DNA of 60,000 nt from Mobula hypostoma (GCF_963921235.1 NC_086097.1:69318001-69378000), one strand, 5' to 3'; positions 2,287 through 50,256 are shown, counted from the stretch's first letter. Notes: generated by a model from the letters alone, not told the origin. A program made the numbers and translations.

Positions 2287-3783
2287 TAGAACATAGAACA
2301 TAGAACATAGAACATAGAACAGTACAGCACAGTACAGGCCCTTCAGCCCACATTGCTGTGCCAACCCTCAAACCCTGCCTCCCATATAACCTCCCACCTT
2401 AAATTCCTCCATATACCTGTCTAGTAGTCTCTTAAATTTCACTAGTGTATCTGCCTCCACCACTGACTCAGGCAGTGTATTCCATGCACCAACCACTCTC
2501 TGAGTAAAAAACCTTCCTCTAATATCCCCCTTGAAATTCCCACCCCTTACCTTAAAGCCATATCCCCTTGTACTGAGCAGTGGTGCCCTGGGGAAGAGGC
2601 GCTGGCTATCCACTCTATCTATGCCTTTTAATATCTTGTATATCTCTATCATGTCTCCTCTCATCCTCCTTCTCTCCAAAGAGTAAAGCCCTAGCTCCCT
2701 TAATCTCTGACCATAATGCATACTCTCTAAACCAGGCAGCATCCTGGTAAATCTCCTCTGTACCCTTTCCAATGCTTCCACATCCTTCCTATAGTGAGGC
2801 GACCAGAACTGGACACAGTACTCCAGTTGTGGCCTAACCAGAGTTTTATAGAGCTGCATCATTACCTCGTGACTCTTAAAAACTATCCCTCGACTTATGA
2901 AAGCTAATACCCTATAAGCTTTCTTAACTACCCTATCCACCTGTGAGGCAACTTCCAGGGATCTGTGGACATGTACCCCGAGATCCCTCTGCTCCTCCGC
3001 ACTACCAAGTATCCTGCCATTTACTTTGTACTCTGCCTTGAAGTTTGTCCTTCCAAAGTGTACCACCTCACACTTCTCCGGGTTGAACTCCATCTGCCAC
3101 TTCTCAGCCCACTTCTGCAACCTATCAATGTCTCTTTGCAATCTTCGACAATCCTCTACACTATCTACAATACCACTAACCTTTGTGTCATCTGCAAACT
3201 TTCAAACCCACCCTTCTACCCCCACATCCATGTCGTTAATAAAAATCACGAAAAGTAGGGGTCCCAGAACCGATCCTTGTGGGACACCACTAGTCACAAC
3301 CCTCCAATCCAAATGTTCTCCCTCCACCACGACCCTCTGCCTTCTGCAGGCAAGCCAATTCTGAATCCACCTGGCCAAACTTCCCTGGATCCCATGCCTT
3401 CTGACTTTCTGAATAAGCCTACCATGTGGAACCTTGTCAAATGCCTTACTAAAATCCATATAGATCACATCCACTGCACTACCCTATCTATATGCCTGGT
3501 CACCTCCTCAAAGAACTCTATCAGGCTTGTTAGACATGATCTGCCCTTCACAACGCCATGCTGACTGTCCCTGATCAGACCATGATTCTCTAAATGCCCA
3601 TAGATCCTATCTCTAAGGATCTTTTCCAACAGCTTTCCCACCACAGACGTAAGGCTCACTGGTCTATAATTACCCGGACTATCCCTACTACATTTTTTGA
3701 ACAAGGGGACAACATTCACCTCCCTGCAATCCTCCAGTACCATTCCCGTGGACAACGAGGACATAAAGATCCTAGCCAGAGGA
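2287..3783 (-). mobile_element. CR1 LINE, 5'-truncated and relatively young (RT domain to 3' tail)
   Basis: [38 protein letters not shown], 257-aa C-terminal ORF at 2368-3141; (agaacat)n tail; few frameshifts. Confidence 0.95.
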
Positions 3784-5489
3784 TATGATATCGGAATTTA
3801 ACTCTGAACTCTGACGCCCTGAGCTGTAATAGTGTCAATAGATTTGTTAGATAAAGACAAAATTGTCTCATGAAATTCCATCCAAATAAATGTGAAGAAA
3901 TGCATTGATGTCCTCTAATCAATAGATAGAGTCTTTGAGTCAATATTTTAACATGGAGGTTGATAATAGAAGCAAAAAAAATACAGGGCTGTAGAACATC
4001 TACATCTTCTCCCTATGGCAACCCTAGCTTCACCTTGTCACCGATATTTCCTTTCTCCTGCATTTCCCACACCCTGACTTCACTGAAAGCTGTTTTTCCT
4101 CACTCCCCACCCCCCAGCTCTAATTAAAGGTCTTCAACCGGAAATGTTAAATTTGTCTCTTTCTGCTGATGCTGTTTGACCACTGAATATTCCCAGCATT
4201 CTCTGTTTTTATTTCAGATTTCCAGCATCTGCAGTTTTTTTAAAAAATTGTATTGGCCTTAACCAAATTGTACATCTGGGCAGTAGGCAAATTAGGGATT
4301 TCAGGCTTCTTATTTTAAGGAAGCAACCCATAAGCAAATGTTTGTATTGCCAATTTGTTTAGCAAAACATTCAACAGGAAATCCAATTTCCCTTGTTTGT
4401 ATCCAAACAGAGAGAAATTCTTTATGTTTGATTTGTTTTGAACTGATCACCCAGCCAGCAATCTTCCTGCTTGGAATTCAGCGATCTTCTCTCTAAAACA
4501 TATTTGTTAGAAATTTGGTATCAATTGACTCTATTAACAAAGGTAAGCACGGTCAAATTTTTTGAACACATAGAGGGATTAGGGTGGCCTGATGTGAAAA
4601 TTGATAGAATAACATTATGTGATACAAATGTGATGACATAATGGAATAAGCTCTTAGAAACTGAATTTTCTCCTATATAGTCTCCTTTGATTGAATGGAA
4701 ATTTGTTTAAAATCTCAATATAATATAGTAATGAATTAAATTTTGAATTAATAAATCTATTTTCTTCTTTAAAAACTTTTTTCTGAGTATCAAGTATTGA
4801 ATTCTATCATTTAATTTAACCATTCCTGGCCCATGTAGAAACAGTTCCAAATTTGTATCCCTCACTGTAGTCTTCAATGCCCTCCTTTATACCCTGATAT
4901 GTTCTACTTTATGGAGGCAATCACCATCTTGTGTGAAAACCTATGCAATTAAACTGCAAATTATGCCTCCTGGTGGATTAGATTTCTGATGCGTTTCCAA
5001 GTTGTTTTGGACTTAAGCCTACAATGTGTTCATTGATCTTTTCTCAGCAGAATTTGTAAACATTAAGTATTTTTAATATTACCATTCATACAAATCATTA
5101 TCAAAATGAAGTAAGAAACAGGGATAGAAAAACAGCTGATGTATGTAACAACGTTTGTAGTATATTGACAGCCACACTTAAAAAAATTATCTAATTTCAT
5201 TTTCATATCTAAGGTGCGGTTTGGTGACTAATTATTGAACATAAACATAAAATAATAATAAAAATACAATGCTACAGACAAGAATTTTATCTTTGGCATT
5301 AAAAGAATCAAGCAGTATGTCATGATGACATTCTAACACAACTAAGATAATTTAGCAAACCAGGGGTTATGTCATATATTAAAGAATATTTCAATAAACC
5401 AGGCTATTTGATATCAGTAATCATCACTCAGGGGTATTCCAACTGAAGTATCTTCATTGTTTCAATGTCTTGGCCTACAAGAACAAATA

Positions 5490-6420
5490 AGTAATGTGCA
5501 GTTGAACAACAACCAGTTGACCTTGCGTCCGTCATCACTGTTCAATCTGCGAATCTACACTCATGTCTGTGTAGCTAAGCACAGTTCAAACACCATTCAT
5601 GAATTTGAACTGTTGTGGGTAGAATCTTAGATGCAACAAAGAAGCATACAGGATTTAGGTAGATTGGCTGTTTGAGTGGTGTCACAACAATAACATCAGT
5701 TTCAGTGTAATCAAGACCAAGAAGATGATTGTGAACTTTAGGAAAGAGGAAGTCAGGAGAACACACCAGTCCTAGAGGGGTCAGTGGTAGAAAGGGGGAG
5801 CAGCTTCAATTTCCTGGGCATCAAAATCTCAGTCGATCAATCCTGGGCCCAGCACATTCATGCAATCATGAAGAAGGCACACCAGCAGCTCTAGTTCATT
5901 AGGAGTCTGAGGAGCTTTAGTATGTCACCAAAGACTCTTACAAATTTCTATATACCTATGGTGGAGAGCGTTCTGACTGGCTGCATCACAATCTGGTGTG
6001 TCGTATCCAAAGTACATGATTGAAAGGGGTTGCAGAGGGTTATGAACACAAACAGTTCCACCATGGGCACAACTATCTCCTCCATCGAGACCATCTTCAA
6101 GAGGCGATGCCTCAAGAAGGCAGCGTCCATCATTAAGGACGTTCATCATCTCGGACATGGCCCCTTCTCATTACTACATGAGGGAGCAGGTGCAGGAGCT
6201 TGAAGACCCCACACTCAATGATTCAGGAGGAGCTCCTTTCTCTCCAGCATCAGATTTCTGAACAGTCCATGATCCCATGAACATTACACCATAATTCCTT
6301 TCCTGCATTATTTGTTTATGTAATTTATGTTTTAAAAAGGTGTTTATATCTTTACACTGTACTGCTGCTGCAAAACAACAAACTTCACATCATAAGTCAT
6401 TGATAATAAACCTGATTCTG
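5490..6420 (+). mobile_element. Rex1/Babar LINE 3' portion, decayed
   Basis: Decayed RT C-terminal coding sequence; ends in taataaacctgattctg. Confidence 0.7.
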
Positions 6421-6624
6421 GTCACAAATAATCAAAATATGGATCCGCCATTTCAACTGCAAGAAATGGATTCAAATAGCTACTTTAATTCCCAGTCCTC
6501 TCTACCATCTGCAAGGCAGCAGAGGGTGACGGAATGCTCACACTCATATGAACCGGGTATCCTCATTGCACTGCGGTATCCTCAGCAAAGTTATCTGCAT
6601 GATTGGCAACCTTGTGAAGAGAAA

Positions 6625-8610
6625 CATAAAGGACAGAGAGTAGTTCAGCACAGGAACTGGCCCTTCAACCCATGTTGCACCAAACTAATTAAACTAGTAA
6701 TTAAATGTCAAGCTAAACTAATTCCTTCTGCCGACACAGTGCCCATATCCTTCCATTCCCTGCACATTCAAGTGCCTATCTGAGAACATCTTCAATGCCT
6801 CTCGGAAATTTGATTTCACCAGCATGCCAGGAACCAGGCAACAGTCTCTGTGAAAAAAAAACTTGCACCACTTATTTCATTTGAACTTCTAGTTCAAGTT
6901 CAAACTTATTTTTGATTATCATTCAACCATTCACATGTATATAGCTAACTGAAACGTTCCTCCAGGGCCAATGTGCAAAGCCCCACCTTAAATGCATGCC
7001 TTCCTTCTCACCTTAAATACATACCTTCCAGTTCAGACAGTTTGACTCTGGAAGAAAGATACCGGCTTTCTATTGTACTATAACCTCCCAATCTTATAAA
7101 CCTTTATCATTTCTTCTCTCAGCCTCTGCAGCTCCAGAGAAATTCCAACTTCTCCTTACAACACATGCACTCGCATCCAGGCAGCATCCTGATAAGCCTC
7201 TTCTGCACCCTCTCCAAAGCTTCAACATCCTTCCTATAATGGGGTGACCTAACTAAAGTTTTATAAAGCTGCAATATACTCTGTGACTCTTGAATTTAGT
7301 GCCTGGGTCAACATGCCTCTTTTACCACCCCATTAACCTGTGCACCCGCTTTTAGAGAGCTATGAACTTGAACTCACAGGAACCCTCCATACGTTAATAC
7401 TGTTAAGAATCTTGTCATTGACAGTGCACTGTCCCTTTATATTTGATCTTTTAAAGTGTAACACCTGACATTTGGGTAAATTAAACTCCATCTACCATTT
7501 CTATGCCAATATGTGCAAATGATCTATATCCCACTGTATCCTTTGATAATCTTCTGCACTTTGTATCAGCTGCAAACTTACTAAGCCATCCAATATGCTG
7601 CACGAGTCTACCACAAGGGACCTTGCCAAATGCCGTACTACATCTGCAGCTCTACCTTCATCATCCCTTTGAAAAACTCGTTCAAGTTGATAAACCATGG
7701 TTTGCCCCACACAAAGACATGTTGGTTGTCCCTAACCAGGCCATGGCTTTCCAATGGCTCATAACCTCTATTCCTAAGAATCCTTTCCTGCAGCTTCCCT
7801 ACTACTGATGTGAGATTCACTGGACTATAGCTTCCAGGATTATCCCTATTTATCTTCTTGAATAATTTAAGTTACTCATCAGTCCTTCGGGACTTTGTCT
7901 ATGACAGGAAAGTATACAATGATCTTGATCAATGCACCAGCAATCTCATCTCTTGCTTCTCTCAGTAACATGGGAACTTATTTAGGACCTCACAAAGTAC
8001 AGGACTGAACAAAGTACTCACTTAAGGCCTTGCCTCAATCCAGCACCTCCAAGCACATGTTCCCTTGTTTATTTCTGAGTGGTCCTACCCATTCCCTAGT
8101 TATCCTCTTGTTCTCAATCCATGTATAGAATGTCTTGGTTTTCTCTGTAATCCTACTTGGTAAGGATTTTTCCTGGTGCGTCCTGACTCTCCCAGTTCTT
8201 AATGTGTTCTTTTCTAATTTCTCTGTAACTCTCAAGAGCTCGGTTTGATCTTAGCTTCCTAAACCTGGAATGCACTTCCTTTTTTTTAAATCAAATTCAC
8301 CACTTCTCTCGATATTTACCTTGCCAACCATATCCTTCCTTTATACTGGAATAACATTTGTCCTGTACTCTGTGTGCAGTTGACTTTCAAATACCCTCCA
8401 CATATCAGATATGGACTTGCCCAAAACATATGGACTAGCTATTCCCTAGTTCCCGCCTAATATAATTTTCCTGCCCCAATTTAATAGTCTCTTACACTTT
8501 ATCATTATTTATATCAATCTTAAAACTAAAGGGGTTGTGGTCCCTTAGCTCTTCTTCCACTGAAAGACAAGTAATCTGGCCAGACTGATTTCCCAACATC
8601 AGGTCTAGCA
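6625..8610 (-). mobile_element. CR1 LINE ORF2, heavily decayed
   Basis: NLTSVVGKLQE, ENKRITREWVGPL, LLDLMLGNQSGQI. Confidence 0.8.
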
Positions 8611-9249
8611 GTACCGAGATGTCTGATAAAATGGTGGCACACTTGTCGCATTGGCTCTCTGGATCCAACAAATGGTGCAAATATTTTGTCTTAAACATTT
8701 TTCTTTCGTAGCAAGATTCTGTTGGACATAGATAATACAAAATACTACAAGGCCGGTTCATTGGCAAGACTAATGATGGGAGAGCTGCGTGGCCTCAGTT
8801 GATGAGTGGACCAGGATGTCATGCCACAGCATTGCCTATTACAGTCACCCACGGGAGAAAGTGTGCAGGCAGTATGGGAGAGAACAGGGGTGTGGCTGGC
8901 ATGCTGGAATCTGTGCTGGGTTGGGAGCTGTTCTCAGTGGGTCAGCTTAGCCATTAGTGCTGCCCTCCAGTCTTCATTCCTTGGAAGACAAGCTAAACGA
9001 AACAACATTCATTTGCAGTGGACTCAAATGTAAGATGAGGAACTACTGTGTGCTTGTTCTTGCAAGAACATGGCTATTGGACAATATTCCATGCACCATT
9101 AATCCTCAGGCTATGCCATTTAATAACTTGTGCTATTATTATTTTGTAACTGTACATTCTGTGCTTTGCACCTTGGACCCAGAGGATCGTTGTTTAGTTT
9201 AGTTTAGCTGTATACATGTATATGGTTGAATGACAATTAAATTTGAACT

Positions 9250-10280
9250 CGTATAGCCCCTCCTCTTATTGGACTATCTACATAATAATTTACGAAACCC
9301 TCCTGGACACACCCAACAAAATTCTACCCCTTTTAAAGCTGTTGCAGTAAAGAGGTCCCAGTCTATATTAGGGAAGTTGAAGTCACTCATGACAACCTCA
9401 TTCTGCCTGCAATTCTGTTCCTCAATATCTGTGTGGCTATTCAGTGTATTTGTAGTATAATCCCATCAGAGTGATTGCATTTTTCTTATTTTTGAGTTGT
9501 ACTTTTATAGATTTGGTGGATGAGTCCATTATATCCCCTGAGTGCAGCTGTGATATTGTCCCTGATTAACAGCGCAACTAACACCCCCATCCACACCCCC
9601 TCCCACTTTTACCTCCTTCTCTTTTCTAAAACATCAAAACCCTGCAACATTACGTATCCAATCCTGTCCCCCTCTCAACCACGTCTCTGCAATGGCCACA
9701 ACATATTTCCATGTACTGATTCATGCTCTAAGTTCATTACCCTTACCTTTAATATTCCCAGCATAAAAATAAAACACTTCAATCCATCTGTTCCATCATG
9801 TCTATTACCTTGCTCTTTTTTACACACTTACTGGTCTGGACATCAACTTTCCTCTCGTTTCCTTCACTTTCAGACATGCTGCTCTGGTTCCCAATCCCCT
9901 GCCAAACTAGTTTAAATCCTTTCGACTAGCACTAGCAAACCTCGTAGCCAGTATATTGGTTTCCCTGCAGTTCAGGAGCAGCCCATCTCGTCACCCCTGC
10001 CCCAAAAGAGTTTTTAATGGTCCAAAAACCTGGAACCCTGATCCTAAACCAGTTCCACAGCATGTTCAGCATTTCTGTCTTTCTATTCTTACCCTGACTA
10101 GTACATGGCACCTGGTGTAGTCCAGAGATTACTACCTTCGATGTTCCACTTTTGAGCCTCTTTCCCAACTCACTGCGCTGGTCCTTTTTCCTTGTTCTAT
10201 GTTATTAGTGTTGCCGTTCACCTTCTTACCCTCCCACTTGAGGAAGTTCTGCAGCCACTCGGAGAACTCTTCAATCCTGG
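9250..10280 (-). mobile_element. CR1 LINE 5' part (ORF1 esterase-like region and endonuclease start), decayed
   Basis: RLKSGTSKVVISGLHQVP resembles the SGNH-esterase ORF1 of CR1 elements; endonuclease-like GDFNFPNIDW remnant at ~9355-9390. Confidence 0.65.
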
Positions 10281-10983: not shown

Positions 10984-11582
10984 GATGAGAAAATCTGCAG
11001 ATGCTGGAAATCCAAGTAACACACACAAAATGCTGGAAGAACTCAGCAGGCCAGGCAGTTCACATTCAGCATGAGGCCACACTCAGGTTGGAGGAGCAAT
11101 ACTATATATTCCGTTTGGGTAATCTCCAGACTGATGGCACGAACAACAATTTCTTAAACATTTCAGTAGCTCCCCCCACCTTCACCATTACCATTCCCAT
11201 TTCCCTCCCTCACTTCATCTCCTTACCTGCCATCAACTGCCTCTGATGCTCTTCCCCATTCCCATTCTTCTATGGTCTTCTACCTTTTCCTATTAGATTC
11301 CCTCTTCTCCAGCCCCTTATCTCTTTCACTTATCAGTTTTCCAGCCCTTTACTTCACCTCCATCCCCTCCCAGTTTCACCTCTCACCTACCACCTTGTAC
11401 TTCTTTCTCCATTCCCCTCCACCTTCTTACTCGAACTTCCCATCTTTTCTTTCTAGTCCTGATGAAGAGTCTCAGCCCAAAATGTTGACTGTTAACTCTT
11501 TTCCATTGATGCTGCCTGGCTTGCTGAGTTCTTCCAGCACTTTGGGTGTTGCTTGGAGTTCCAGCATCTGCAGATTTTCTTC
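10984..11582 (+). mobile_element. Penelope-like element 3' fragment with an inverted 5' pLTR piece
   Basis: EATLRLEEQYYIFRLGNLQTDG (GIY-YIG C-terminus); inverted terminal copies at 10984-11058 and ~11510-11582; degenerate hammerhead at ~11455-11490. Confidence 0.85.
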
Positions 11583-12149
11583 TACTTGTAAATATTCAAT
11601 TTATTAGCTTTAGTCCCTATTTTAGATTTATTACTCAAAGCCACAAAGAAATAGGCTATCAAATAGGTTTCTGTCAAGAACACTAATCTAAACTTAGATG
11701 GTAAAAACAAAGGATTTCTGCAATTTAAAAAACTGCAATGTATGTTTAAAGCATAGTTATTTTTTGAACTTCTAACTGTAAATTTAATTAGTTCATTCCA
11801 GTGCTAATAAAATATACTTCAACCTTCTCACTGAAAGTCCAATTGAACCATCAGGTGAAAATATTGAAGAAGAGCATTTGTGGAACTGGTTGAGGAGGTT
11901 GAAAAACTTCTCCCTTGTACAATTAAATTCCATGAATAATTTTAATGGAGTAGCAGCTATCATTCCACTCAAAAGCATGACAACTTGAAGGGAACATTGA
12001 AGACCACTTTATCATCTGAGCAAATAGAGGTGCAAACATAATTTTGGCGATGAAGGATGGTAGGTGGTTGAAACATACTTAAATGTTTAAAAGGATTAAT
12101 GTCAACCGCTATTTTATTCAAAGGTTTGCCATGGCTCCACTGACTTCAC

Positions 12150-12620
12150 ACTTTGTGTTATTGAGACCAAGAATCACAGTTGGCATTTCTCCTGCTGGAG
12201 AATCAATTCACTGAAACCATTCAAATGGAACAACAATTACATCAGGATAGCTAGGAGGATAAATCAACCAACATCAGTATTCTTCACAAGCCAGCATCCC
12301 CAGCAATGAGGATTTAACTACATATCAACATTTGGCAGGCCATTTTGCTTGAACATCTGACCCCACTTTTCCAAGCAATCACTTTATCCTGATGATCCCT
12401 GGGTCATGACCACAGAAATGAAGGAGGAACTTTTGGAATGGTTTTGGGAATCAACAGTCCATGTCTCTGCATTAAAAAAAAACATTACTTCACAAACTAC
12501 CCAAATGCCAGTCCTGCGAGATAACTTGACTCATTTGTGGAAGAGTTCTTGGAATCTAAAAAAAAATTACTGGAATGGAAACACATTCTCCTTAAACCCA
12601 AGAGATTGCCTAAGAAAAAG
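12150..12620 (+). mobile_element. Old RTE-type LINE 3' coding remnant
   Basis: Reading across frameshifts gives EDKSTNISIL..QASIPSNE...AGHF...PKQSLY, resembling the RTE ORF C-terminus. Confidence 0.5.
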
Positions 12621-13410
12621 CTGATGCAATTACCAGTACAAATTATTCACTTTTCCCCAGAATTTAAAGTTCAAGCTTACATTTCTTTGAATAGTTTTTC
12701 TTGATTCTTATATAGAAAGATTTTTTTTAAGTCTTCATCTTAGAAACCCTATAATTTCACCATAACTTGTTCCTTGGACGAGATATCTCATTCTGTATGC
12801 ATTTATTCAAGGAGGTAAAAGAGATAGAATATTCATGGTAAGTGCCATTTGTTGAAATAACTCATTCCTGCAATGTTTCCTACTGAGTTGTGACACAGCT
12901 ATGAAAATAAGACCAGAAGATATAGGAACAGAATTTGGCGATTTGACCCATTGAGTCTGCTCCACTATTTCATCATGGCTGATCCAATTTGCCTCTCAGC
13001 CTCAGTCTCCTGCCTTCTCCCCGTATCCCTTCATGCCCTAACCAATCAAGAACCTATCAACCTCTGCCTTAAATATACATAAAGACTTGGCCTTCAGAGC
13101 TGCCCGTGACAAAGAATTCTACATTCCCACGGTAGGACATTCAAATTGTGACATTTTATAACCCTAAAACATAAAACTAATTGGAAGAAAAACACGGAGA
13201 GTTCAGAATGAGAGTCTAACTTTGCTTTTACTTTAAGTGAGGCGCACGTGTATCATGTCGCTGTGTAATGATGTTTGCCATTTATGATGTTTGACAATTT
13301 GTGGCTGTGAAAACAATTTCAGGCTCTGGGACCTTCTCTGTGGTCATTGTAGGCGTTGACTCCTGTGACTGCGGGAAATGGTTCTGACAGCTCTGGTCAC
13401 CTTTCTTCTC

Positions 13411-13990
13411 CTTTTCTCTCTCGATCTATTTCGATCCTTGATTCACTTATGATCCCTATCATGATCTCGCTCTTGTTCCTATTGTTTTTCTTTATGTTCC
13501 TTCTCTCTTTCATGGCTTTCTCTTTCTTTTCCTTTTTCTTCTTTCTAGGATGTTCATCTTGATTTTGCGAAGGTCCATTTAGTTCACTGAAGTACTGTAG
13601 TCTATTACAGTATCCCTTTTATTTGTCCCTTTACGCTCTGATCTCTCCTCTTGGTTTCCACATCCACAATATCTCCATTGACTCCTTTTTTTTTTGGCTT
13701 TCCATTCATCCAGCTGGGGTTTGGTCTTTGCCCCTTTTACGAGCAGTTCTTTTGATTCCCACGAAGTTCATGCAATAATTTTAATATACACAACTTCCCT
13801 GAAGCTCCTTGAACTCTTTTCCAGTTTAAAACCAAGCCACATTTCGCAAGTAACTGCCTAATTAACGTATCAGAAGCTTTCTCAGATACCTTACCTGTAA
13901 GATCTGTTTTAGTCAGACCATTGCTTTCATCACTTTCGTGAGTCCTCTGAGCTTGGTCCCATATGTTTTCCAACCCAGAGGCACTAACAC
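13411..13990 (-). pseudogene. RBM25: Processed, internally deleted RBM25 retrocopy fragment (RRM through the RE/RD-rich region)
   Basis: GKVSEKASDTLIRQLLAKCGLVLNWKRVQGASGKL, KTKPQLDEWKAKKKGVNG, ETKRRDQSVKG and SELNGPSQNQDEHPRKKKKEKKE are collinear with recalled RBM25; no introns; frameshifts, stops and deletions present. Confidence 0.9.
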
Positions 13991-14839
13991 CTATTTTCCC
14001 TCAATTGGGCAATAGTTAATGGTGTACAGCATGGAGACAGTTGTGGCAGCATCCATTACCTTTCTTAATTCGTTTTCAGTTGACTCTATTACAGGGGATG
14101 TGGTATGCAAATTGTGAATCAGTCTCCAATCAATTTGTAATTGTCTCAGCTAATCATGTCCTAACAATGCTGGCCCTCTTGCTTTTACCACATACAAGCC
14201 AAATGAGGTATATTGGTTGCTGTATTTCACTGTTATGAGTGTTATTTCCACAAGTTATCTTTTCTCCAGTATAAATTCTTAGTTGGGTATCTACAGATTT
14301 CAGTTCAGCATCTTTAAAGTGCTGTTCAAACTTATTTTGTGGAATTACTGAAACAACTGAGCCAGTGTCCAATTTCATTTTAATTTGCCGTTCACTTCTG
14401 CTGTAAGCCATATTGCTCATCTATTATTTTCACATTGTAAATCTTAAAGCTAATCAGTTCTGAGTCACATTTATCAGTATCAGATTTTTTTTATCAACTT
14501 CATGCAGATTAGCACTCTTTTTGAAATTACAACTTTTCATCTTTTTCTCTTCCCTGTGCAGTCGATTTATTTTTGTCTGCCCAACATGCTCTTTGTATGT
14601 GTCCTACTGTTACATTTTCTGCCAGTCACCTTTAAACCTGTGTTGTTCTGGTGTATGCGAGCCCCTGCCACAGCAGTAACACAATTTGTTTGGCCAGGTT
14701 GGTTTCTGTTCGGACCCAAGTTGTTCATGCTCACTTTTATTTCTGACTACAACTCAATTGTGTCTCTGTGCATTGTTTCCATTGAAACAGCTATTTTGAC
14801 TGCTGTTTTAAATGTCAGTTGTGCTCCAGTTAGGAGCTA

Positions 14840-15279
14840 TTTTTTTTAATCAGAAACAGAATCAGCAGTACAATACATAATAGAGAAAAAGACTTAATTA
14901 CAGTAAATATATAGAAATGAAATAAGTAGTGCAAAAAAAAGTGAGATAGTGTTCATGGGTTCAATGTCTATTCAGATATCAATGGCAGAGGGGAAGAAGT
15001 CGTTCCTGAATTATCAAGTGCGTGTCTTTATGCTCCTGTGTCTCCTTCCTGATGGTAGCAATGAGAACAGTGCACATCCAGAGTGATAGGGGTCCCTTAT
15101 GGTGGATGCCAACCCCTGACCCCCACCCCCCAAACCGGACAGTGATGCAGCCAGTTAGAATGGTCTCCACAGTACATCTGTAGAAATTTGCAAGGCTCTT
15201 TTGGTGACGTACCAAAACTCATCAAACTCCTAATGAAATATAGCCACTGTTGTGCCTTCTTTGTAGCTGCATTGCTATG
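14840..15279 (-). mobile_element. Rex1/Babar-type LINE 3' fragment nested in the Gypsy gag
   Basis: KKAQQWLYFIRSL / LANFYRCTVETILTGCITV and an (aatcag)n tail; interrupts gag between ...LQESIQ and LLTGAQLTFK... Confidence 0.8.
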
Positions 15280-17159
15280 GTTGAATGCTTTCTTGTAAGA
15301 TTCCACAAATTAAATGATCTCTCAGTGGATCATTAAGCTCAGCACTGAACCAACAATGCTCAGACAACTTCTTCAATTCAGCCATGTACACTGAAATGAA
15401 CTCCTCTTCCTTGTGGTTCCACTTATGAAACCTAAAGCATTCTGCAATCAACAATAGTTTTGGTTCTAAATGTTCCTGCATTACTTTTAATATTAGGAAA
15501 GCTCATTTCAGCTTGATTAGTTGGAGCAGTAAAACTTCCAAGTAAACTGTATGCCTTTAAACGCAATGCACTCAACCAAGCTGGCACTCACTTCTCATTG
15601 GTTATTTCATTTGCTTCAAAATACTGCTCAATTAGACTACAAGACATAGGAGCAGAATTAGTATACATGAACCAGTTATCAATGAGCAATCAAATGCATC
15701 TCTTTCTGATGTAGCTGCCCATTTCTGCTTTATTTTTATTCATGATCATTATCACAGTATGAACCCACAAATTTGTCTGTTTTCTACCTTTTTAAAAAAA
15801 ATTCAACCATCTCCTTTTTCAAAGACAAATTGATGCGCTGATTTTTTTTTTAAAAACTTAAACATCTCGCTGTGCTTCAGCAGGTAGGTCATCATCTTGG
15901 GTTCATTAAAAAAAAATCACCACTGTTATGTTTTGTAACTCCAAAACATTAAATTAATTGGAAGGAAAACGGAGTCCAAAATGTGAGTCTAACTTCATTG
16001 AACATTTCCAGCATTTTCTGCTTCGATAATAGTTATCCCCCAGCTGGAGGATATCACAGACTAGCTGGTACACTGCTCTAGTTAAACATACAATTGGCCA
16101 TGTTTCATTTTTAAAAATACAATTTGGAACATAAATTTTACGTAATGAATATGATATCCTTAGAACATACTAATAGAAAAGGGCTGAAATTAATTCCAAA
16201 GCATTCATGCAGACTGTTCCATAAAAGAATTGTCATTAATATCTTGGATTATCCTTATCTCATCTATCACATACATTCCCTCTGTTCTTCTCATTCTTCC
16301 CCCCCCCACCCCCGCACCACAAGTTGTTTTCTCATTTCTGTTCCAATGGAGAATCTGAAATATTAACTCTGTTTCTCCTTCCACCGATGTCACTTGGACT
16401 GTTAAGTGTTACCAGTATTTTCTGGTTTTGTTTCTAAAAACAGCCAGCCAACTAAGGGAGCTGATTAAGAAATGTTTATAATCTCATGCTTACTAACAAT
16501 AGTTTGCCTTAATTTACCACAAGGAACAATGAATAAGTTATTTTTAAAATTACCGGCCACTATCTATTATCTGACTGCTGAAAATATTTCCTGTATAATT
16601 TTTATACTGCACTTCATTAAACTATGGAACAAAAGATAGACAAGTATTCTTAAAATAAACTGGTTATTTAATTTTGTTTGGGTATCGATCTGCTCTAAGG
16701 CAGCCTTGAAGAGGAACCAAACCTTATTTTGAAAGGATACAGTATATTTCCACTGGTTGCTTCCATTGAATGGATTGTCTTTTGAATAGAAAAACAAAAG
16801 AAATGAACCAACTTAATGAATACAGAAAGACAATCTATTGAGAGTTTTGGAAAACCTTGTGACCTTTTGCAAATGTCAAAGAGTCAGACACTTCAAGATC
16901 AACAGCAGAAGGTTTTTAAAAGAACAGATCATGTGCTAAAATAACCAGAAAACAAAAAGATGTGAAAAGATATATAGAACTGACAAAGTTTCAAAATAAA
17001 AGTAAGTATCTTTATCTAGCAGATTTAATTCAAACTAGGATGGTCCGTGAAGATTGTATCGTGAAGTATCATACTCAATGTGCAAAAACTCATCTAACAA
17101 AAACACATGACTCCGATTCTGTTGTTTTCTTTAACATATTAGTGTATAGAGAAAGAAAA

Positions 17160-17765
17160 AGATATTCCCACTTAGGAAAACTTTGTCAAACCTCTATAGA
17201 TGCACAGTGGAGAGTATTCTAACAGGCTACATCTTGGCCTGGATTGGAAACACCAATGACCAGGAACAAAAAGAACACAGAAAGTGGTAGATATGGCCCA
17301 ATCTATTATAAGCAAAACTCTCCCCACCATTGAGCAAACTTCCAGAGCCTGCCACAAGAATGCAGCGTCTATCATCAAAGACCCCATCATCCAGGCCGTG
17401 CTCTCTTCTCACTACTACAATCAAACAGGAGGTACAGGAGCCTTAGCTCCTATACCACCAGTTTCAGGAACAGTTCTTACCCTAGAACCATCATATTCCT
17501 GAACCAGTCTGCACATCTTTACTCACCACAACCCTAAACTGATTTCACAAGCTAGACTCACTTTCAAGGACCTTACAACTATTTTTTTTAATTTGCACAA
17601 TTTGTCTTCTTATACATATTGGTTGTTTGTCAGTCTTTCTTTATGTATAGATTTTGATAAAATTCTATTGAATCTTTATTTTCCTGTAAGTGTCATAAGC
17701 AAATGAATCTCAAGGTAGTATGCTGTAACATACATGTAATTTTATCATGCATTTTATTTTGACAA
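17160..17765 (+). mobile_element. Rex1/Babar LINE 3' fragment
   Basis: VVDMAQSIISKTLPTIE...AASIIKDP. Confidence 0.75.
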
Positions 17766-20390: not shown

Positions 20391-21140
20391 AACACAAGCA
20401 ACATACATCAAAGTTGCTGGTGAACGCAGCAGGCCAAGCAGCATCTATAGGAAGAGGTGCAGTCGACGTTTCAGGCCGAGACCCTTCGTCAGGACTAACT
20501 GAAGGAAGAGTGAGTAAGGGATTTGAAAGTTGGAGGGGGAGGGGGAGATCCAAAATGATAGGAGAAGACAGGAGGGGGAGGGAAGACAGGAGGGGGAGGG
20601 ATAGAGCCGAGAGCTGGACAGGTGATAGGCAAAAGGGGATACGAGAGGATCATGGGACAGGAGGTCCGGGAAGAAAGACAAGGTGGGGGGGAACCCAGAG
20701 GATGGGCAAGAGGTATATTCAGAGGGACAGAGGGAGAAAAAGGAGAGTGAGAGAAAGAATGTGTGCATAAAAATAAGTAACAGATGGGGTACGAGGGGGA
20801 GGTGGGGCATTAGCGGAAGTTAGAGAAATCGATGTTCATGCCATCAGGTTGGAGGCTACCCAGACGGAATATAAGGTGTTGTTCCTCCAACCTGAGTGTG
20901 GCTTCATCTTTACAGTAGAGGAGGCCGTGGATAGACATGTCAGAATGGGAATGGGATGTGGAATTAAAATGTTTGGCCACTGGGAGATCCTGCTTTCTCT
21001 GGCGGACAGAGCGTAGATGTTCAGCAAAGCGGTCTCCCAGTCTGCGTCGGGTCTCACCAATATATAAAAGGCCACATCGGGAGCACCGGACGCAGTATAT
21101 CACCCCAGTCGACTCACAGGTGAAGTGATGCCTCACCTGG
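20391..21140 (-). mobile_element. Penelope-like element 3' end: uninterrupted GIY-YIG endonuclease domain plus pLTR, in NUBPL intron 10
   Basis: ORF 20810-21140: FTCESTGVIYCVRCSRCGLLYIGETRRRLGDRFAEH...VAKHFN...EQHLIFRLGSLQPDGMN. Confidence 0.93.
20461..20496 (-). ncRNA. Minimal type I hammerhead ribozyme in a Penelope pLTR
   Basis: AGUC-CUGACGA-AGG gucucgg CCU-GAAAC-GUC^GACU: stem I AGUC/GACU, intact core, palindromic ACGU stem III. Confidence 0.85.
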
Positions 21141-21169
21141 GGACCCGAGTCACCCCAACCATAATCTAT

Positions 21170-21412
21170 TCCAGCAGCTACCATCCGGGAAATGGTACAG
21201 CAGCATAAAAGCCAGGACCAACAGACTCCGGGACAGCTTCTTCCACCAGGCCATCAGACTGATTAACTCAGGCTGATTTGAGTGTATTTCTATGTTACAT
21301 TGACTGTTCTATTTATTATAAATTATTATAAATTACTATGATTGCACATTTTGCACATGTAAAGATTTTTACTCATGTTATGTGAAGGATGTAAGAAATA
21401 AAATCAATTCAA
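21170..21412 (+). mobile_element. Rex1/Babar LINE 3' tail
   Basis: Reverse complement of the 1565-1830 tail. Confidence 0.7.
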
Positions 21413-29536: not shown

Positions 29537-31142
29537 CAGGTTTCCCCCACCATCCGAAGGTAGAGCGTTCCTATGAAACAGTTCATAAGCCAGAAGGTCG
29601 TAAAGCGAAGAAGCAATCACCATTTATTTATATGGGAAAAATTTGTGAGCGTACGCAGACCCAAAAATAACCTACCGAATCATGCCAAATAACACATAAA
29701 ACCTAAAATAACAGTAACATATAATAAAAGCAGGAATGATATGATAAATACACAGCCTATATAAAGTAGAAATACTTCTCTACAATCTTTGCCTGCACTG
29801 TTCTCCGTAGCGAAAGTCTCATGCAAGCGCTCTTGGCAGAAACACGGCGCAAGCACTCTCCAGTAACCTTTAAGCTATGAAGCTGACAAATCATACCAAA
29901 TAACGCATAAAAATACACAGCCTATATAAAGTAGAAATACTGTATGTACAGTGTAGTATTACTTACGGGAATCAGGAAGACAGCGCCAAGCACACTGATG
30001 ATGGCGTGTTAGGCTGAATCGGAGGTTGGGGTGGTGCAGTGGTCCCCACCCTCCGGGCAGCGAACCAATACCGATCCGCGAAGCATGCAGGGGTGCAGCG
30101 GTAGCCGGGAGGCACCCAGCACGTCTTTAAGAAAAAAGCCGAAATAAACAAGCTAATTAATTAGGTGCTGCCCAGCACGTAAATGTCGGCCCAGATCAGA
30201 GGCGACACACCAGCAATTGCCTCTGACCTGGGCCGACATTTACGTGCCGGGCGACACCTAATTAATTAGCTTGTTTATTTCGGCTTTTTTCTTAAAGACG
30301 TGCTGGGTGCCTCCCAGCTACCGCTGCATTTTTCATGGATCGGTATCTGTCCATGGCCCGGGGGTTGGGGTGTCAGGGCACTGGGGTGTCATCAAGTCAA
30401 CTTCTTCTATGTCTGCCTGCCTCGATGTCGAAGGTCGAGGTTTGTCATCTGCTGTGGCTGATGTGGAAGGCTTGAAAAACGACAGTATGCTTGCCTGCTA
30501 GCCTCGCGCATTTGTCTATCATACAGTTCTTTGTAAGCACTCAAACCATCCTGCAAATATACCCTAAACTGACGTACCCTTTCAAAATTAAAGTTGTACT
30601 TTATCATTGCAGCGAAAATCTCATGCAGTTGCTTCATGTGTTCAGTTCCTGGATGACTTCATTTTCGGTCCGTTCGCTACTACATTCGGTTTCGATTGTT
30701 ATCCTTTCCTCTTCCAATTGCATCAGCTCTTCATCTATCAGTTCTTGGTCATGGGATGCCAAACCTCTTCAACATCATCTTCGTCAACTTCCACAAGCCA
30801 AACTCACTTTGTCCTTACTTCGTTCACCACGATCGAAACGCTTAATTATGTCTAGTTTTACGCTAAGTGTAACACCCTTACGAGCTGTTTTAGGCTTTTC
30901 CGATACCTTAGAACTCATCTTGCTAATGGCTGCTCACAGGCACGTGTTTAAGCAATGCCGGCTAGAATGCCGTTCCGAATCCGGGGGACAGCAGCTGCTT
31001 GGGGCGTGTGCTACTTTTTTCTCGCACGCTGCTTTTTTCATAAGTGAAAACACCTCTTGTTAGCGAAAACAGGGAACTAATGTAGGTCTTTCATAACAGT
31101 GAGGTTTCATAAAGCGAATGTTCGAAAAGCAGGGGACACCTG
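29537..31142 (-). mobile_element. Non-autonomous Tigger/pogo DNA transposon (internal-deletion derivative)
   Basis: TA|caggtttcccc...ggggacacctg|TA; N-terminal CENP-B/psq-like MSSKVSEKPKTARKGVTLSVKLDIIKRFDRGE at ~30800-30918 joined directly to the C-terminal remnant (30407-30637); DDE domain absent. Confidence 0.88.
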
Positions 31143-31548: not shown

Positions 31549-32712
31549 CAGTGCCTTGTAGAAATATTCAGTCCCCAACCATATGTTCACATAAATGGGC
31601 ATTACAACCAGGGATCTTGATCAATTTAACTGAAATTTTATTTGTAGATCACATGCTCTCCTTTTCACAGCAGATTCCAAAAAAAAGGGTAAAATAGTGA
31701 AGCATGAAAAACTAAAAATTCAAAAACTGAAATGTCAGCAGGTCAAAAGTATTCATCCCCCATTCCCCAGTACTGTACTTAGTTGAACCGCCTCTTATAG
31801 CTATTACGGCCAGTAGTCTTTTTGGAAAAGACTCTATTAGCTTTGCACAACGTGATGGAGCAAAATTTACCCACTCCTCCTTCCAAAATTGCTCAAGCTG
31901 TGCCAGGTTAGTCGGGGAGTGGCAGTGGACAGAAATCTTGAGGTCTTGCCAGAGATGTTCGAACGTGTTAAGGTCAGGGCTCTTACTGGCCACTCTTCTT
32001 TTTCTTCTTCATTTGAAGCCACTCCATGGTTGCTCTGGCAGTGTGTCATTGTCCTGTTGAAAGACAAACTATCTCCATAGTTTAAGCTTTCTAAGAGAGG
32101 CTGGCAGGTTTTTATCCCGGATTTCTATGTATTTAGCAACATTCATTTTCTCATCAATCATGACCAGATTTCCAGCACCATACTTTATAGTTGGGATGGT
32201 TTTCCCGGCTGATGTGCAGTATAAGATTTACATCACACATACTGCTAAAAAAAAACATATCCTTGCCCATCAAGATTTTCCAGTGCCACTTAGAAGATAT
32301 TGTAAAGATCTGGAAGAAATTCCTGTGGTCGGATGAGGCTAAAGTGGAACTTTTTGGTCTCAACACCAAACTGTGCATGTGGCGTAAATCTAAGCAATTT
32401 TCAGCAACGTTGCAAGGCGAAATGGGCAAATTTTGCTCAATCACATTGTGCAAAGCTAATGCAGACTAAACTAAAAAGACTACTGGTTGTCATAGCTGCG
32501 AGAGGTAAGGATAGTGCAAAGGATAGTAGATACTTTTTAACTGCAGACATTTCAGATTTTGAACTGTTATTATTTTTTTTCATGCTTTACAATTTATCCA
32601 AGGAGCATACGATTCACAAATTAAAATCTCAGTTAAATTGATCAAAATCCCTAGTTGTAATACCCATTTATATGAACAAAGGGTTGAGGGCTGATACTTT
32701 TACAAGGCATTA
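31549..32712. mobile_element. Tc1-derived fold-back element made of two opposed transposase 3' ends
   Basis: TA|cagtgccttgta...tacaaggcatta|TA; SPDLNTFEHLW...CAKLIESFPKRLLAVI on (-) and CAKLMQTKLKRLLVVIAARG on (+). Confidence 0.82.
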
Positions 32713-33619: not shown

Positions 33620-34118
33620 TTGAGATGAGCTACAACCTGATTTGTAGCTCAGGTTGTGGATGTTGTTGTTGAGTAGCTCGGAGAGCTGGCTTGTTAACTT
33701 GCAGACGTTTCATTACCCAGCTAGACAACATCATCAATGCAACTTCGAATGAAATGTTGGTGATCGACACCGTTCATCTTTTATGTGTCCTGTGATTGGC
33801 ACGCGCGCATATGTGTGCGTGTGTGTGTGTGTGTGTATATATATATACACACACACACAAAACGACATAACGGTCAACTGGTCGACTAACAGCCAGGATA
33901 ACAATTATCACCTAACCAGATTTTAATGAGCCAATCCCAGATTACATAATCGATAACCCATAGAAATGGCATACACACACACAAATCACAGGAGACATAA
34001 AAATGAACAATGTAGATCACTAACATTTCACTCGAAGTTGCACTGATGATGTTGCCTAGTTGGGTAACGAAATGTCTGCAAGCTAACAAGCCAGCTCGCA
34101 GAGCCACTCAACAACAAC
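33620..34118. mobile_element. Second Penelope-family fold-back insertion (inverted pLTRs) with a 15-bp TSD
   Basis: TSD attatcaaagtacat at 33605-33619 and 34119-34133; diverged inverted arms at ~33660-33797 and ~33983-34120. Confidence 0.85.
34038..34081 (+). ncRNA. Type I hammerhead ribozyme, second family
   Basis: UUGCA-CUGAUGA-uGUUGCCU aguu GGGUAAC-GAAAU-GUC^UGCAA; mirror copy at 33699-33742 (-) has a C3U core change. Confidence 0.75.
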
Positions 34119-34289
34119 ATTATCAAAGTACATATATGCATGTTACCACATACTACCTTGAGATTCAATTTTTTGCAGGCATTTACATGAAAAAAAGAAA
34201 TAAAATAGAAACTATGAAAAACCATACATAAACAAAGACTGACAAACAACCAATATGCAAAACAAGACGAACTATGAAAATTTTAAAAA

Positions 34290-34899: not shown

Positions 34900-36075
34900 G
34901 AGTGTGAGGTCATAAAATCAGTTCAGAGTTGTGGTGAGTGAAAATATCCAGTGGTTCAGGAGCCTTATGGTAAAAGGGTAATAGCCATTCCTGAACCTGG
35001 TGGTTTGGGACTTCAGACTTCTGTACCTCCTGCCCAATGGTAGTAGCGAGAAGAGATCATGGCCTGGATAGTGAGGGACTTGGATGATGGATGCTGGTTT
35101 CTTGTGGCAGCGCACATGTAAATATACTCAGTTATGGAGAGGGCTTTGCCCATGATGGACTGGGGCATCCACCACTTTCTGTAGTCATTTCCATTCCTAG
35201 TCATTGGTGTTTCCATAAGAGGCCATGATGCAACCAGTTAGGAGACTCGCCACTGTGCACCTATAAAAGTTTGTCAGAGCTTTTGGTAACATGCAGAATC
35301 TATGCAAACTTCTAAGTAGAGGAACTGTCGTGCTTTTTTTTTTATGACAGCACTTACATGATGGTACCCGGACAGATCCTCTGATACATTAATGCCAAGG
35401 AATTTAAAGCAACTGACCCTCTTCACCTCCAATCCCTGAATAAAGACTGGCTCCTACTAGCCAATAAGTATCTCTTTAATTTTGCTGATGTTGAGAGAGA
35501 GAGGTTGTTGTGGCACCACTCAACCAGATTTTCAATATTCCTCCAATATGCCAATTTGTCATCACCTTTGATTCAGCCAACAGTGGTGTCATCAGCAATC
35601 TTAATTATGGCGTTGGAGTTGTACTTAACCTCACAGTCACAAGTACTACACAAGTAGAGCAGGAAGCTGAGCACACAGCCTTTTTGTGCACCTGTACTGA
35701 TGGTGATTGTGGAGGACATGTTATTGACAATCTGTACTGACTGGGGTCTGCAAGTGAGGAAATCCAGGATCTACTTACACAAAGAGGTATCAATACCCAG
35801 ATCTTGGAGCTTTGTGATGAGTTTTCAGGAAATGATAGTATTGTGCGCTGAGCTGTAGTCAATGAATAGCTTCCTGATGTATGCATCTTCATTGTCCAGA
35901 ATTGCAGAACCAATGAAGTGGCATCTGCTATTAACTTGTGACAATAAACAAACTGGAGTGAATCCAGGTCGCTCAGGCAGGGGTTGCTATGCTTCATGAC
36001 CAACCGCTCGAAGCACTTTATCACAGTGCATACAAGTGCTACTGGACAATAGTCATTGGGGAAGGTTACCATGTT
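34900..36075 (-). mobile_element. Rex1/Babar LINE RT fragment
   Basis: NDYCPVALVCTVIKCFERLVMKH; KPASIIQVPHYPGHDLFSLLP. Confidence 0.8.
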
Positions 36076-37249: not shown

Positions 37250-38560
37250 AATTGAATTGAATTGACTTTATTACTTACATCCTTCACATACACGAGGAGT
37301 AAAACTCTTAACATTACATCCCCGTGTAAAAGTAATTTGTAATAAATAGCATGTACAATAGGACCGTCAATATAACTTAGAAAGACAACTCTATCAGTGT
37401 GAATTAATCAGTCTGATGGCCTGGTGGAAGAAGCTGTCCCAGAGCCTGATGGTCCTGGCTTTTATGCTGTGGTACAGTTTCCTGGATGGTAGCAGCTGGA
37501 ACAGTTTGTGGTTGGGGTGACTTGGGTCCCCACTATTTCTTCTGGCCCTTTTTACACACTTGTCTTTGTAAGTGTCCTGAATAGTTGGAAGTTCACATCT
37601 ATAGATGTGCTGGGCTGTCCGCACCACTCTCTGCAGAGTCCTGCGATTGACGCAAGTATAGTTCCCCTACCAGGCAGTGATGCAGCCAGTCAGGATGCTC
37701 TCAACTGTGCCCCTGTAGAAAGTTCTTAGGATTTGGGGGCCCACACCAAACTTCTTCAACCATCTGAGGTGAAAGAGGCACTGCTGTGCTTTTTTTAAAC
37801 CACACAGCCAGTATGTACACACCATGTGAGATATTCAGTGATGTGTATCCTCAGGAACTTAAAGCTGCTCACCCTCTCAACCCGAAATCCATTGATGTCA
37901 ATAGGGGTTAGCTTGTCTCCTTTCCTCCTGTAATCCACAACCAGCTCCTTTGATTTTGCGACACTGCGGGAGAGGTTGTTTTCTTGACACCACCATGTGA
38001 GGGTGATGACTTCTTCTCTGTAAGCTGCCTCGTTATTATTTGAGATTTGGCCAATCAATGGAGTATTGTCAGCAAATTTAATTAGCAGATTGGAGCTGTG
38101 GGTGGAAACACAGTCATGGGTATACAGAGAGTAAAGATGGGGGCTTAGGACACAGACCTGAGGGGCACCTGTGTTGAGGGTCAGAGGGGCAGAGATGAGG
38201 GAGCCCACTCTTACCACCTGTCGACGATCTGACAGGAAGTCCAGGATCCAGCTACCCAAGGCAGATTGAAGGCCGAGGTCTCTGAGCTTCTTGTCGAGCC
38301 TGGAGGGAATTCTGATGTTGAATGCGAAACCGTAGTCCGAGAACAGCATTCTCACAGAAGCATCCTTCTTCTCCAGATGTGTAAGGACAGTGTGTAGAGC
38401 TGTGACAATTTGTGTCACCTATCGATCAGTTATGTCGGTAGGCGAATTGTAGGGAGTCCAGTGTGGGTGATAGCAAGCTGCAGATGTAGTCCTTGACCAG
38501 CCTCTCAAAGCATTTGCTTATTATTGAGGTGAGTGCGACAGGATGCCAGTCGTTCAGACA
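37250..38560 (-). mobile_element. Rex1/Babar LINE (RT domain to 3' tail)
   Basis: 207-aa ORF TALHTVLTHLE...TGAPQVCVLSP...IKFADN; (aattg)n tail. Confidence 0.9.
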
Positions 38561-40984: not shown

Positions 40985-41785
40985 CTGCTCCTAAAGATGT
41001 CCTGGGTTCTTTGTAGGCTAGTGCCCAAGATGGAGCTGACTAGATTTACAACCTTCTGCAGCTTCTTTCGGTCCTGTGCAGTAGCCCCTCCATACCAGAC
41101 AGTGATAGAGCCTGTCAGAATGCTCTCCATGGTACAACTATAGAAGTTTTTGAGTGCATTTAATGACATGTCAAATCTCTTCAAACTCCTAATAAAGTAT
41201 AGCCGCTGTCTTGCCTCCTTTATAACTACATCGATATGTTGGGACCAGATTTGATCCTCAGAGATCTTGACACCCAGGAACTTGAAGCTGCTCACTCTCT
41301 CCACTTCTGATCCCTCTATGAGGATTGGTTTGTGTTCCTTCGTCTTACCCTTCCTGAAGTCCACAATCAGCTCTTTCGTCTTACTGACCTTGAGTGCCAG
41401 GCTGTTGCTACGGCACCACTCCACGAGTTGGCATATCTCATTCCTGTATGCCCTCTTGTCACCACCTAAGATTCTACTAACAACGGTTATATCATCAGCA
41501 AATTTATAGATGGTATTTGAGCAGGCCTAGCCACATAGTCATGAATATAGAGAGAATAGAGCAGTGGGCTAAGCACACACCCCTGAGGTGCACCAGTGTT
41601 GATCGTCAGTGAGGAGGATATGTTATACCAATCTGCACAGATTGTGGTCTTCCGGTTAGGAAGTCAAGGATCCAATTGCAGAGGGAGGTACAGAGGCCCA
41701 GGTTCTGCAACTTCTCAATCAGGACTGTGGGAATGATGATATTAAATGCTGAACTATAGTGGATGAACAGCATCCTGACATAGGT
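40985..41785 (-). mobile_element. Rex1/Babar LINE RT fragment
   Basis: EWCRSNSLALKVSKTKELIVDFRK...RQRLYFIRSLKRF. Confidence 0.88.
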
Positions 41786-48989: not shown

Positions 48990-50256
48990 ATTAGTGCTGC
49001 AACAGGGGAGAGTGACCATTGGGTGGGAAATAACCTCATACTTCAAGTAACTCCACAAAAAGGTAATTGAAAAGCATAAATCAGGAGATGGATACAATAA
49101 AATTTCCAAGTCACTGAATATCCACTGGAGTACAGTTACGTCAATAATCAAGAAACAGAGAAAATATGGCACAACTGTAAATCTGCCTACAGCAGGTGAT
49201 CCTCAAAAACTAAGTGACCATGCAAGAAGGGCACTCGTGAGGGAGGCCACCAAGAGACCCATGACAACTCTGGAGGAGTTACAAGCCTCAATGGCTGAGA
49301 TGGGAGAGACTGCGCATACAACAAATGTTGCCCAGGTACTTCACTAGTCGCAGCTTTATGGGAGAGTGGCAAAGAGAAAGCCACTGTTGAAAAAAAAACC
49401 ACATGAAATCTCAGCTAGAGTTTGCCAGAAGGCAGGTGGGAGAATCTGAAGTCAGCTGAAAGAATTATGGTCCGATGAAACAAAATTGAGCTTTTTGGCC
49501 ATCAGACTAAACACCACCTTTGGCAGAAGACAAACTCCGTACATCAAAAACACACCATCCCTACTGTGAAGCATGGTGGTGGCTGCATCATGCTGTGGGA
49601 ATGCTTCACTGCAGCAGGACCTGGAAAGCTTGTGAAGGTAGAGGGTAAAATGAGTGCAGCAAAATTACAGGGATATCCTGGAGAAAAACCTGATGCAGTT
49701 TGCAAAAGAACTGCAACTTGGGTGAAGATTTGTTTTCCAGCAAGACAATGGCCCAAAGCATAAAGCCAAACCTACACAGGAATGGCTTAAAACAACAAAG
49801 TTAATGTCCTGGAGTGACCAAGTCAGCGTCCAGACCTCAATCCAATTGAGAATTTGTGGCTGGACTTGAAAAGGGCTGTTCACCCATGGCCCCCATGCAA
49901 TCTGATAGAACTTGAGCAGATTTGTAAAGAATGGGGGAAAATTGCAGTGTCCAGATATGCAAAGCTGACAGAGACCTATCCACACAGACTCAAGGCTGTA
50001 ATTGCTGCCAAAGGTGCATCTACTAAACACTGACTTGAAGGGGGTAAATACTTATGCAATCAATTATTTTGTGTTTTATATTTGCAACTAATTTAGATCA
50101 CTTTGTAGAGATCTGTTTTCACTTTGACACGAAAGAGTACTGTTGATCAGTGTCAAAAAAGCCAAATTAAATCCACTGTGATTCAATGTTGTAAAACAAT
50201 AAAACATGAAATGAAAATATCTGGGGAGGGGGCTGAATACTTTTTAATAGGCAATG
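48990..50256 (+). mobile_element. Tc1-family DNA transposon, decayed transposase, left end missing
   Basis: WSDETKIELFG, VKHGGGCIMLWECF, FQQDNGPKH, PDLNPIENLW; right TIR tgaatactttttaataggcaatg|TA. Confidence 0.9.

Follow-up and report, generated by a model that had tools for sequence, protein, structure and literature searches.

The NUBPL-like gene and the RBM25-bearing Gypsy element of the window

The window, that is, the whole 60,000 nt stretch of Mobula hypostoma DNA analysed here (GCF_963921235.1, NC_086097.1:69318001-69378000), is repeat-rich vertebrate DNA with a GC content of 39.5%, and among its 126 long ORFs, seven matched RVT_1, one GIY-YIG and one a Tc1-type transposase. The minus strand carries a NUBPL-like gene whose exons lie near 52160, 47150, 40510, 39800, 31480, 24240 and 23950, the last one probably being at 19803. 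About 3.7 kb beyond its stop codon and on the same strand lies a Gypsy element. This element, at 13147-15995 (-), belongs to a Gypsy LTR family with an RBM25 cargo; the copy is dead and has no function today. An earlier note on this DNA had described a Gypsy LTR element with RBM25 in place of its RT-integrase region, which was confirmed by the LTR pair, tblastn and the polyprotein alignments. The features, all on the minus strand, are as follows.

15924..15995 (-): 5′ LTR remnant, 3′ portion only, ending in CA; 59 of 72 positions match the 3′ LTR
15917..15922 (-): TGGTGA, a PBS-like start with a T run after it, read from the sequence, one base past the 5′ LTR end
15281..15722 (-): N-terminal part of gag, with stops and frameshifts (tblastn with full polyproteins; P0142 residues 1-142, E 4e-29)
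14846..15280 (-): secondary insertion inside gag, 3′ fragment of a LINE, with gag residue 142 on both sides
14597..14845 (-): C-terminal part of gag (tblastn P0142, residues 142-225, and P0146; homologues carry zf-CCHC)
near 14690-14640 (-): degenerate zinc knuckle, within the C-terminal part of gag
14042..14413 (-): aspartic protease and linker before RT, frameshifted (tblastn; LDTG at ~14375)
14042..14047 (-): 5′ switch region of two codons, Ala and Thr, compatible with element and RBM25 alike
13411..14041 (-): spliced RBM25 fragment, sense, with several internal deletions, frameshifts and stops
13991..14038 (-): 16-codon RBM25 segment, likely an extra exon, found only in the Heptranchias cluster (3 of 136 RBM25 proteins)
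13414..13530 (-): RE/RD-rich RBM25 stretch, kept in the window copy, apparently absent from most copies
13223..13410 (-): element tail, putative end of pol and 3′ internal region; high-copy; four cargo-free contigs leave at 13410
13147..13222 (-): 3′ LTR, the part matching the 5′ remnant, ending in CA

Ty3/Gypsy elements carry TG...CA LTRs, a PBS, a PPT and a TSD of 4-6 bp. Comparison of the two LTR remnants (15924-15995 with 13147-13222) revealed 10 transitions and 3 transversions (K2P 0.21), and their local score of 71 exceeded the maximum of 33 reached in 300 shuffles. The remnants had been judged by eye to differ at about one base in five, and the TGGTGA named earlier as the PBS start is indeed present one base past the 5′ LTR end. 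No outer LTR ends, LTR starts, PPT or TSD of the element were recognisable in the window sequence; the failure to find an element TSD or polypurine tract follows from outer LTR ends that are lost or unrecognisable.

Gag and protease are retained and the remaining pol domains are absent

In tblastn, polyprotein P0142 aligned with residues 1-142 at 15722-15281, residues 142-225 at 14845-14597 and residues 289-416 at 14413-14036. The gag, zinc knuckle and protease read earlier were thereby recovered, but a 435-bp LINE-type piece that splits gag had been overlooked. This piece interrupts gag at residue 142, and its part at 15126-15279 is 75% like 41086-41238 in a DNA match, the latter lying within an RVT_1 ORF; comparison of the insert in an uninformative frame yielded only E 6.2. 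Contigs skipping 14842-15281 numbered five in run X1, six in X5 and four in X22, and because these 15 contigs in three runs skip the LINE piece, it was inserted later.

A phmmer search with the protease piece returned 24 matches, and 8 of the 12 scanned carried aspartyl-protease families, the other four being three unrelated repeat proteins and one protein without a family. With P0142 residues 250-450, 143 of 331 candidates matched, and the domain order PR-RT-RNase H-IN was found in all three full-length homologues scanned. The 120 full-length polyproteins listed all aligned through gag and protease only, four alignments beginning past residue 450 likewise fell on gag or protease, and no RT, RNase H or integrase match was obtained in 12000-17500 or elsewhere in the window. 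The absence of these domains and of a poly(A) tail claimed earlier thus held in the polyprotein alignments and in a scan for A runs. An alignment of P0165 extending past the junction to 13985 at 29.5% identity was read as alignment overrun. Gag and protease of the fish Ty3/Gypsy K02A2.6-like elements (P0161, P0165 and P0168) align with the window copy at 26-68% identity; these elements have a single gag-pol ORF of ~1320 aa in the order PR-RT-RNase H-IN, whereas their residues from ~415 onward (RT, RNase H and integrase) have no counterpart in the window copy. The likely Ty3/Gypsy placement of the window copy, which lacks RT, RNase H and integrase, is therefore drawn from gag and protease.

Pfam scanning of the decayed element pieces gave none of eight at the cut-off (RVP E 0.11), a PDB search gave no match, a word-indexed search with the protease-linker piece matched neither of two candidates, and Rfam gave no match in 12000-17500. 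The 3′ tail (13223-13410) had no polyprotein match, and its position and the cargo-free contigs suggest that it may be the end of pol.

The cargo is a spliced, doubly truncated RBM25 fragment

The cargo comprises ~630 bp of RBM25 coding sequence, longer than the ~580 bp first estimated, since 13991-14041 is also RBM25. An 87-aa frame at 13740-14000 was matched by 220 of 302 candidates, the best being an RBM25-like protein of Heptranchias perlo, and the shark RBM25 protein P0001 matched the window in tblastn with E 5e-38. Both this best match and the 16-codon segment confined to the cluster of that shark point to a cartilaginous-fish origin of the DNA. Protein P0122 aligned by residues 8-29 at 14059-13994, 57-109 at 13949-13791, 127-165 at 13784-13671 and 197-223 at 13597-13517, and the RE/RD region of full-length RBM25 at 13544-13401. 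The C-terminal half of RBM25, including the PWI domain, is missing, so the cargo, in sense orientation, is truncated at both mRNA ends. The 136 RBM25 proteins were also ranked greedily on ungapped scores, but this ranking was discarded as noise, the shark proteins falling outside its top 12.

The RBM25 identity of the RRM reported earlier stood, but the domain is not intact in the window copy: its alignment stops at 13791, where ~17 codons are missing, and the segment 13890-13901 is altered. In each run 88-117 contigs have further letters at 13791, so the 17-codon loss is not general in the family.

The cargo crosses several exon boundaries, which were placed indirectly, from RBM25 isoforms and one RNA contig. 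The NCBI RBM25 isoforms X1 and X2 differ at one point, where isoform X1 is four residues longer, and the window agrees with isoform X2 (P0121) at 13991|13990. A contig of run X9 with a depth of 76.7, likely host RBM25 mRNA, aligns over 13791-14038 and departs at 14038, where the window crosses the boundary 14039|14038 and continues as in P0122. The window also crosses 13674|13673, a point at which five isoforms diverge, four continuing with Val into an intron and the fifth skipping ahead. At ~13517 it jumps to the RE/RD region with the omission of some 40 or more codons, and this jump follows the segment after which the shark models enter unrelated sequence. Weaker support exists for an A|K boundary at 13845|13844, seen in one of 134 proteins and placed partly by what we take to be the RBM25 exon structure. 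Together, these comparisons support the reading of the cargo as a piece of spliced mRNA that probably crosses several exon boundaries, and an origin within a single RBM25 exon, named beforehand as a possible objection, did not fit them.

Another objection raised beforehand, that the RBM25 piece has its own TSD or poly(A), found no support either, neither having been detected abutting the insert. At the cargo there is no poly(A), the sole run of at least six A being internal, at 13695, and no TSD abuts the cargo, its flanks being non-contiguous parts of the element. A 9-mer present at both 14066 and 13407 was considered as a TSD and rejected because it does not abut the cargo, lying 16 bases inside the 5′ flank, and because cargo-free contigs cover both places.

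Cargo-free relatives mark both junctions

Cargo-free contigs (85 in run X10, 84 in X12 and 82 in X17) align down to 14042 and then leave. Opposite the window codons at 14047-14033, P0122 reads Ala-Thr-Thr-Val-Ser, so that up to 6 nt at 14047-14042 are compatible with both parents, four of the six letters being fixed by the P0122 amino acids; the chance of such an overlap for two given fourfold codons is 0.004. With the parent mRNA letters read back through protein P0122 only, the overlap gives support, not proof, for what may be microhomology at the 5′ junction, the only one with such support. At 14038 the likely host RNA contig differs in its upstream sequence. The protease linker and the start of the cargo share one reading frame, for which the chance is one in three.

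On the 3′ side, four contigs in run X9 depart at 13410. The departure of these cargo-free contigs is consistent with the switch at ~13410 proposed earlier, and the 'pol tail' said to follow it has no protein match, its identity being drawn from position. Positions 13411-13413 are present in both a long and a short form of the family, and cargo-free contigs are already gone there; on only three letters, this hints weakly at a single 3′ switch point common to both forms. The third objection raised beforehand, that the two flanks derive from different LTR families, is improbable: the LTR remnants match, and either flank reaches about twice the depth of the cargo.

The chimera forms a large, probably non-autonomous family

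Part of the stretch was held by 20 of the 24 public contig runs listed, and seven runs were examined in detail. Summed contig depth is not copy number, and only its order of magnitude was used. At 13719, in five DNA-type runs with five species labels, the summed depth reached 14380 (X1), 17838 (X5), 44981 (X10), 15781 (X12) and 26571 (X17), exceeding the depth (maximum or median) of the eight listed pieces of each run by a factor of 907-2991, which gives an estimate of about 10^3 cargo copies per genome, a thousand or more. Up to 127 distinct contigs per run cover the cargo positions. Among the 32 pieces listed, 12 extend across 14042 by 56 or more letters on either side, 11 of them at 80-85% identity to the window copy and one at 90%. 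Cargo depth was 0.43-0.48 of that of the 5′ flank and 0.47-0.59 of that of the 3′ flank, and because it is about half the flank depth, roughly half of the related elements carry the cargo. Beyond 16007 the summed depth falls to 0-36, about single copy. The contig depth and the 12 listed bridging pieces support the RBM25 chimera as a non-autonomous family with a common 5′ switch point, as the earlier note had suspected of the chimera's amplification.

Depth within the cargo is uneven. Leaving out 13511-13547 as repeat, it was 3-88 in 13435-13492 vs. 3759-10056 in the bins 13406-13434 and 13551-13579. In four of the 12 contig rows listed, 13413 is followed after 11-36 letters by 13560-13570; by eye these letters resemble 13531-13560, but the three longer of the four rows depart from 13531-13560 at the same places. 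Most copies thus appear to be without ~13414-13530, and the window copy appears to be a rare long form in which ~117 bp are kept. Removal of 117 bp from the window copy would not by itself yield the short form. A CpG-prone, low-complexity stretch such as this one may also decay faster, which could contribute to the depth dip at 13435-13492.

The insertion is probably old

The LTR-LTR divergence was 18 ± 4.5%. A piece of run X5 spans 15940-16200 at 98%, which identifies the same locus in organism B, and the closest pieces in organisms C, E and G (94, 93 and 90% alike) are probably orthologous by their similarity. At this LTR divergence, the insertion likely predates the splits from these organisms. 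For the epaulette shark, a mutation rate of 7e-10 per generation is reported (PMC10587355). An absolute date from the 7e-10 rate and the K2P of 0.21, ~1.5e8 generations, was rejected as not credible.

Discussion

As a whole explanation of this family, we regard capture by an LTR element through two template switches, followed by non-autonomous amplification, as probable, and within it we infer the template-switch step. RBM25 mRNA would have been co-packaged with element RNA, and reverse transcriptase, copying the 3′ region of the element, would have switched to the mRNA within the purine-rich RE/RD stretch (~13410) and back to the element where the Ala-Thr codons lie (14047-14042). With both LTRs and the PBS kept, the product would then have integrated; cargo-free relatives would have supplied RT and integrase in trans for amplification; a later internal deletion would have created the shorter majority form; and the long-form window copy would have decayed and taken the LINE insertion. 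Among the contigs, none represented an intact autonomous element across both flanks.

The order of events may instead have been that a LINE-made, 5′-truncated RBM25 retrocopy landed after the protease and that one deletion preceded amplification, which we consider unlikely. Such a single deletion would remove the 3′ end of the retrocopy, its poly(A) and TSD together with RT-RNase H-integrase, that is, all LINE hallmarks; the window holds many LINE RT frames, as the seven RVT_1 matches attest, a LINE piece did land in the window copy's gag, and internal deletions are frequent in the family. However, two rare events are required ahead of amplification, no intermediate was present among the contigs listed, and the two-codon 5′ overlap, the sense orientation and the ORF replacement fit the LTR-mediated pattern set out in PMC5131818. 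An RBM25 cDNA or RNA may also have patched a break in a genomic Gypsy copy by microhomology-mediated repair outside the particle, before amplification. Although the same junction anatomy would result, and the contig data do not separate repair from template switching, free RBM25 cDNA would have to meet an active element's pol by chance, and the recurring partial mRNAs in LTR elements of many animals are better explained by co-packaging, so that we give repair very little credence. Finally, that the copies arose by segmental or tandem duplication or as assembly artefacts, without retrotransposition, is barely tenable, for although depth was summed over contigs and is not copy number, it drops to near single copy immediately beyond the 5′ LTR remnant, the junction-bridging pieces are 15-20% divergent, and the distinct contigs over the cargo reach 127 in a run.

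The capture mechanism favoured here, template switching within an LTR element, is known; the scale of amplification is unusual. Tan et al. (2016, PMC5131818) reported LTR-mediated retrocopies from across the animals, zebrafish among them, in a survey whose species included no cartilaginous fish. In these retrocopies, too, an intron-less mRNA that is partial and truncated at both ends takes the place of part of an internal ORF, with LTR sequence on both sides and no poly(A) or TSD, and they undergo secondary retroposition with common switch points, often in frame; the examples consulted have few copies, whereas ~10^3 copies are estimated for the RBM25 family under each of the five species labels. 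Maize Bs1, as summarised there, is also an LTR element with captured spliced host sequence and switch points common to all copies, but its copies number one to five and its parent genes three, and it is reported functional, in contrast to the one parent gene and ~10^3 copies of the RBM25 family and its dead window copy. LINE-made processed pseudogenes share the intron-less mRNA copy; by the hallmarks given in PMC5131818, the RBM25 cargo differs in having no poly(A), TSD or mRNA 3′ end, and it sits in an LTR element that spread as a unit. No description of an RBM25-carrying family was found in the literature searched, a search outside which lay most subscription papers, Repbase and Dfam.

The cargo may have been more than a passenger, in that an in-frame Gag-protease-RRM polyprotein or the longer frame aided translation and packaging of the chimeric RNA, a proposal that we consider unlikely. 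If the cargo did aid spread, an element without RT and integrase became as numerous as its cargo-free relatives, and this would amount to reverse domestication, with a transposon recruiting an RNA-binding domain of its host. The ~10^3 copies in several species would be enough to test the effect of a cargo on the spread of an LTR element, through frame retention and codon constraint in the cargo compared with gag. For these fishes, the cargo copies can mislead RBM25 annotation, exon-capture probes and read mapping. An old spliced RBM25 isoform, including a segment found only in the shark cluster, is also preserved in the cargo, and in the window copy a rare long form survives that retains the likely original 3′ switch point.

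The extra segment and internal jump of the RBM25 cargo

Within the spliced RBM25 fragment carried by the Gypsy element (minus strand, 13411-14041), the 16-codon segment at 13991-14038 was found in just three of the 136 RBM25 proteins compared, all of them in the cluster that includes the shark Heptranchias perlo, and an alternative 4-codon extension exists. Upstream of this segment, the deep contig of run X9 that likely represents the host mRNA differs in sequence. Further into the cargo, the purine-rich DNA at 13544-13517 reads as KKKKEK in one frame and as EEKGK in another, each resembling a separate part of RBM25, and this two-frame likeness is possibly the homology behind the cargo's internal jump.

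The NUBPL-like gene and other repeats in the window

Beside the element, exons of a NUBPL-like gene (Mrp/NBP35 family) were observed on the minus strand within 52250-19740, with the likely stop codon ~3.7 kb upstream of the Gypsy element. At 502-684 lies a perfect 91-bp inverted repeat with arms 1 nt apart. The inverted arm pairs listed below probably represent either MITE-like elements or members of repeat families lying in inverted orientation, and the GIY-YIG endonuclease ORF is one that we take to be Penelope-like.

Near 52160, 47150, 40670, 40510, 39800, 31480, 24240, 23950 and 19803, minus strand: NUBPL-like exons
20364, 24504, 50698 and 54335: further copies of the 502-684 inverted-repeat family
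10988-11058 and 11512-11580; 31568-31896 and 32400-32694; 30094-30328; 33660-34120: long inverted arm pairs, 87-95% complementary
20813-21253, minus strand: GIY-YIG endonuclease ORF
49051-49344: transposase HTH fragment, Tc1/Sleeping Beauty type
About 5871-6286, 35226-35340, 37669-37796, 41086-41238, 55718-56154 and 57146-57219: pieces related to the LINE fragment at 14846-15280

The gag and leader of the Gypsy element

The gag of the Gypsy element is interrupted at 14846-15280 by this LINE 3′ fragment. The leader and gag start (15634-15915) were poorly covered by other copies of the element, and 25 contigs of sequencing run X1 joined 15633 to 15916-15920; therefore, the leader is different or shorter in many copies.
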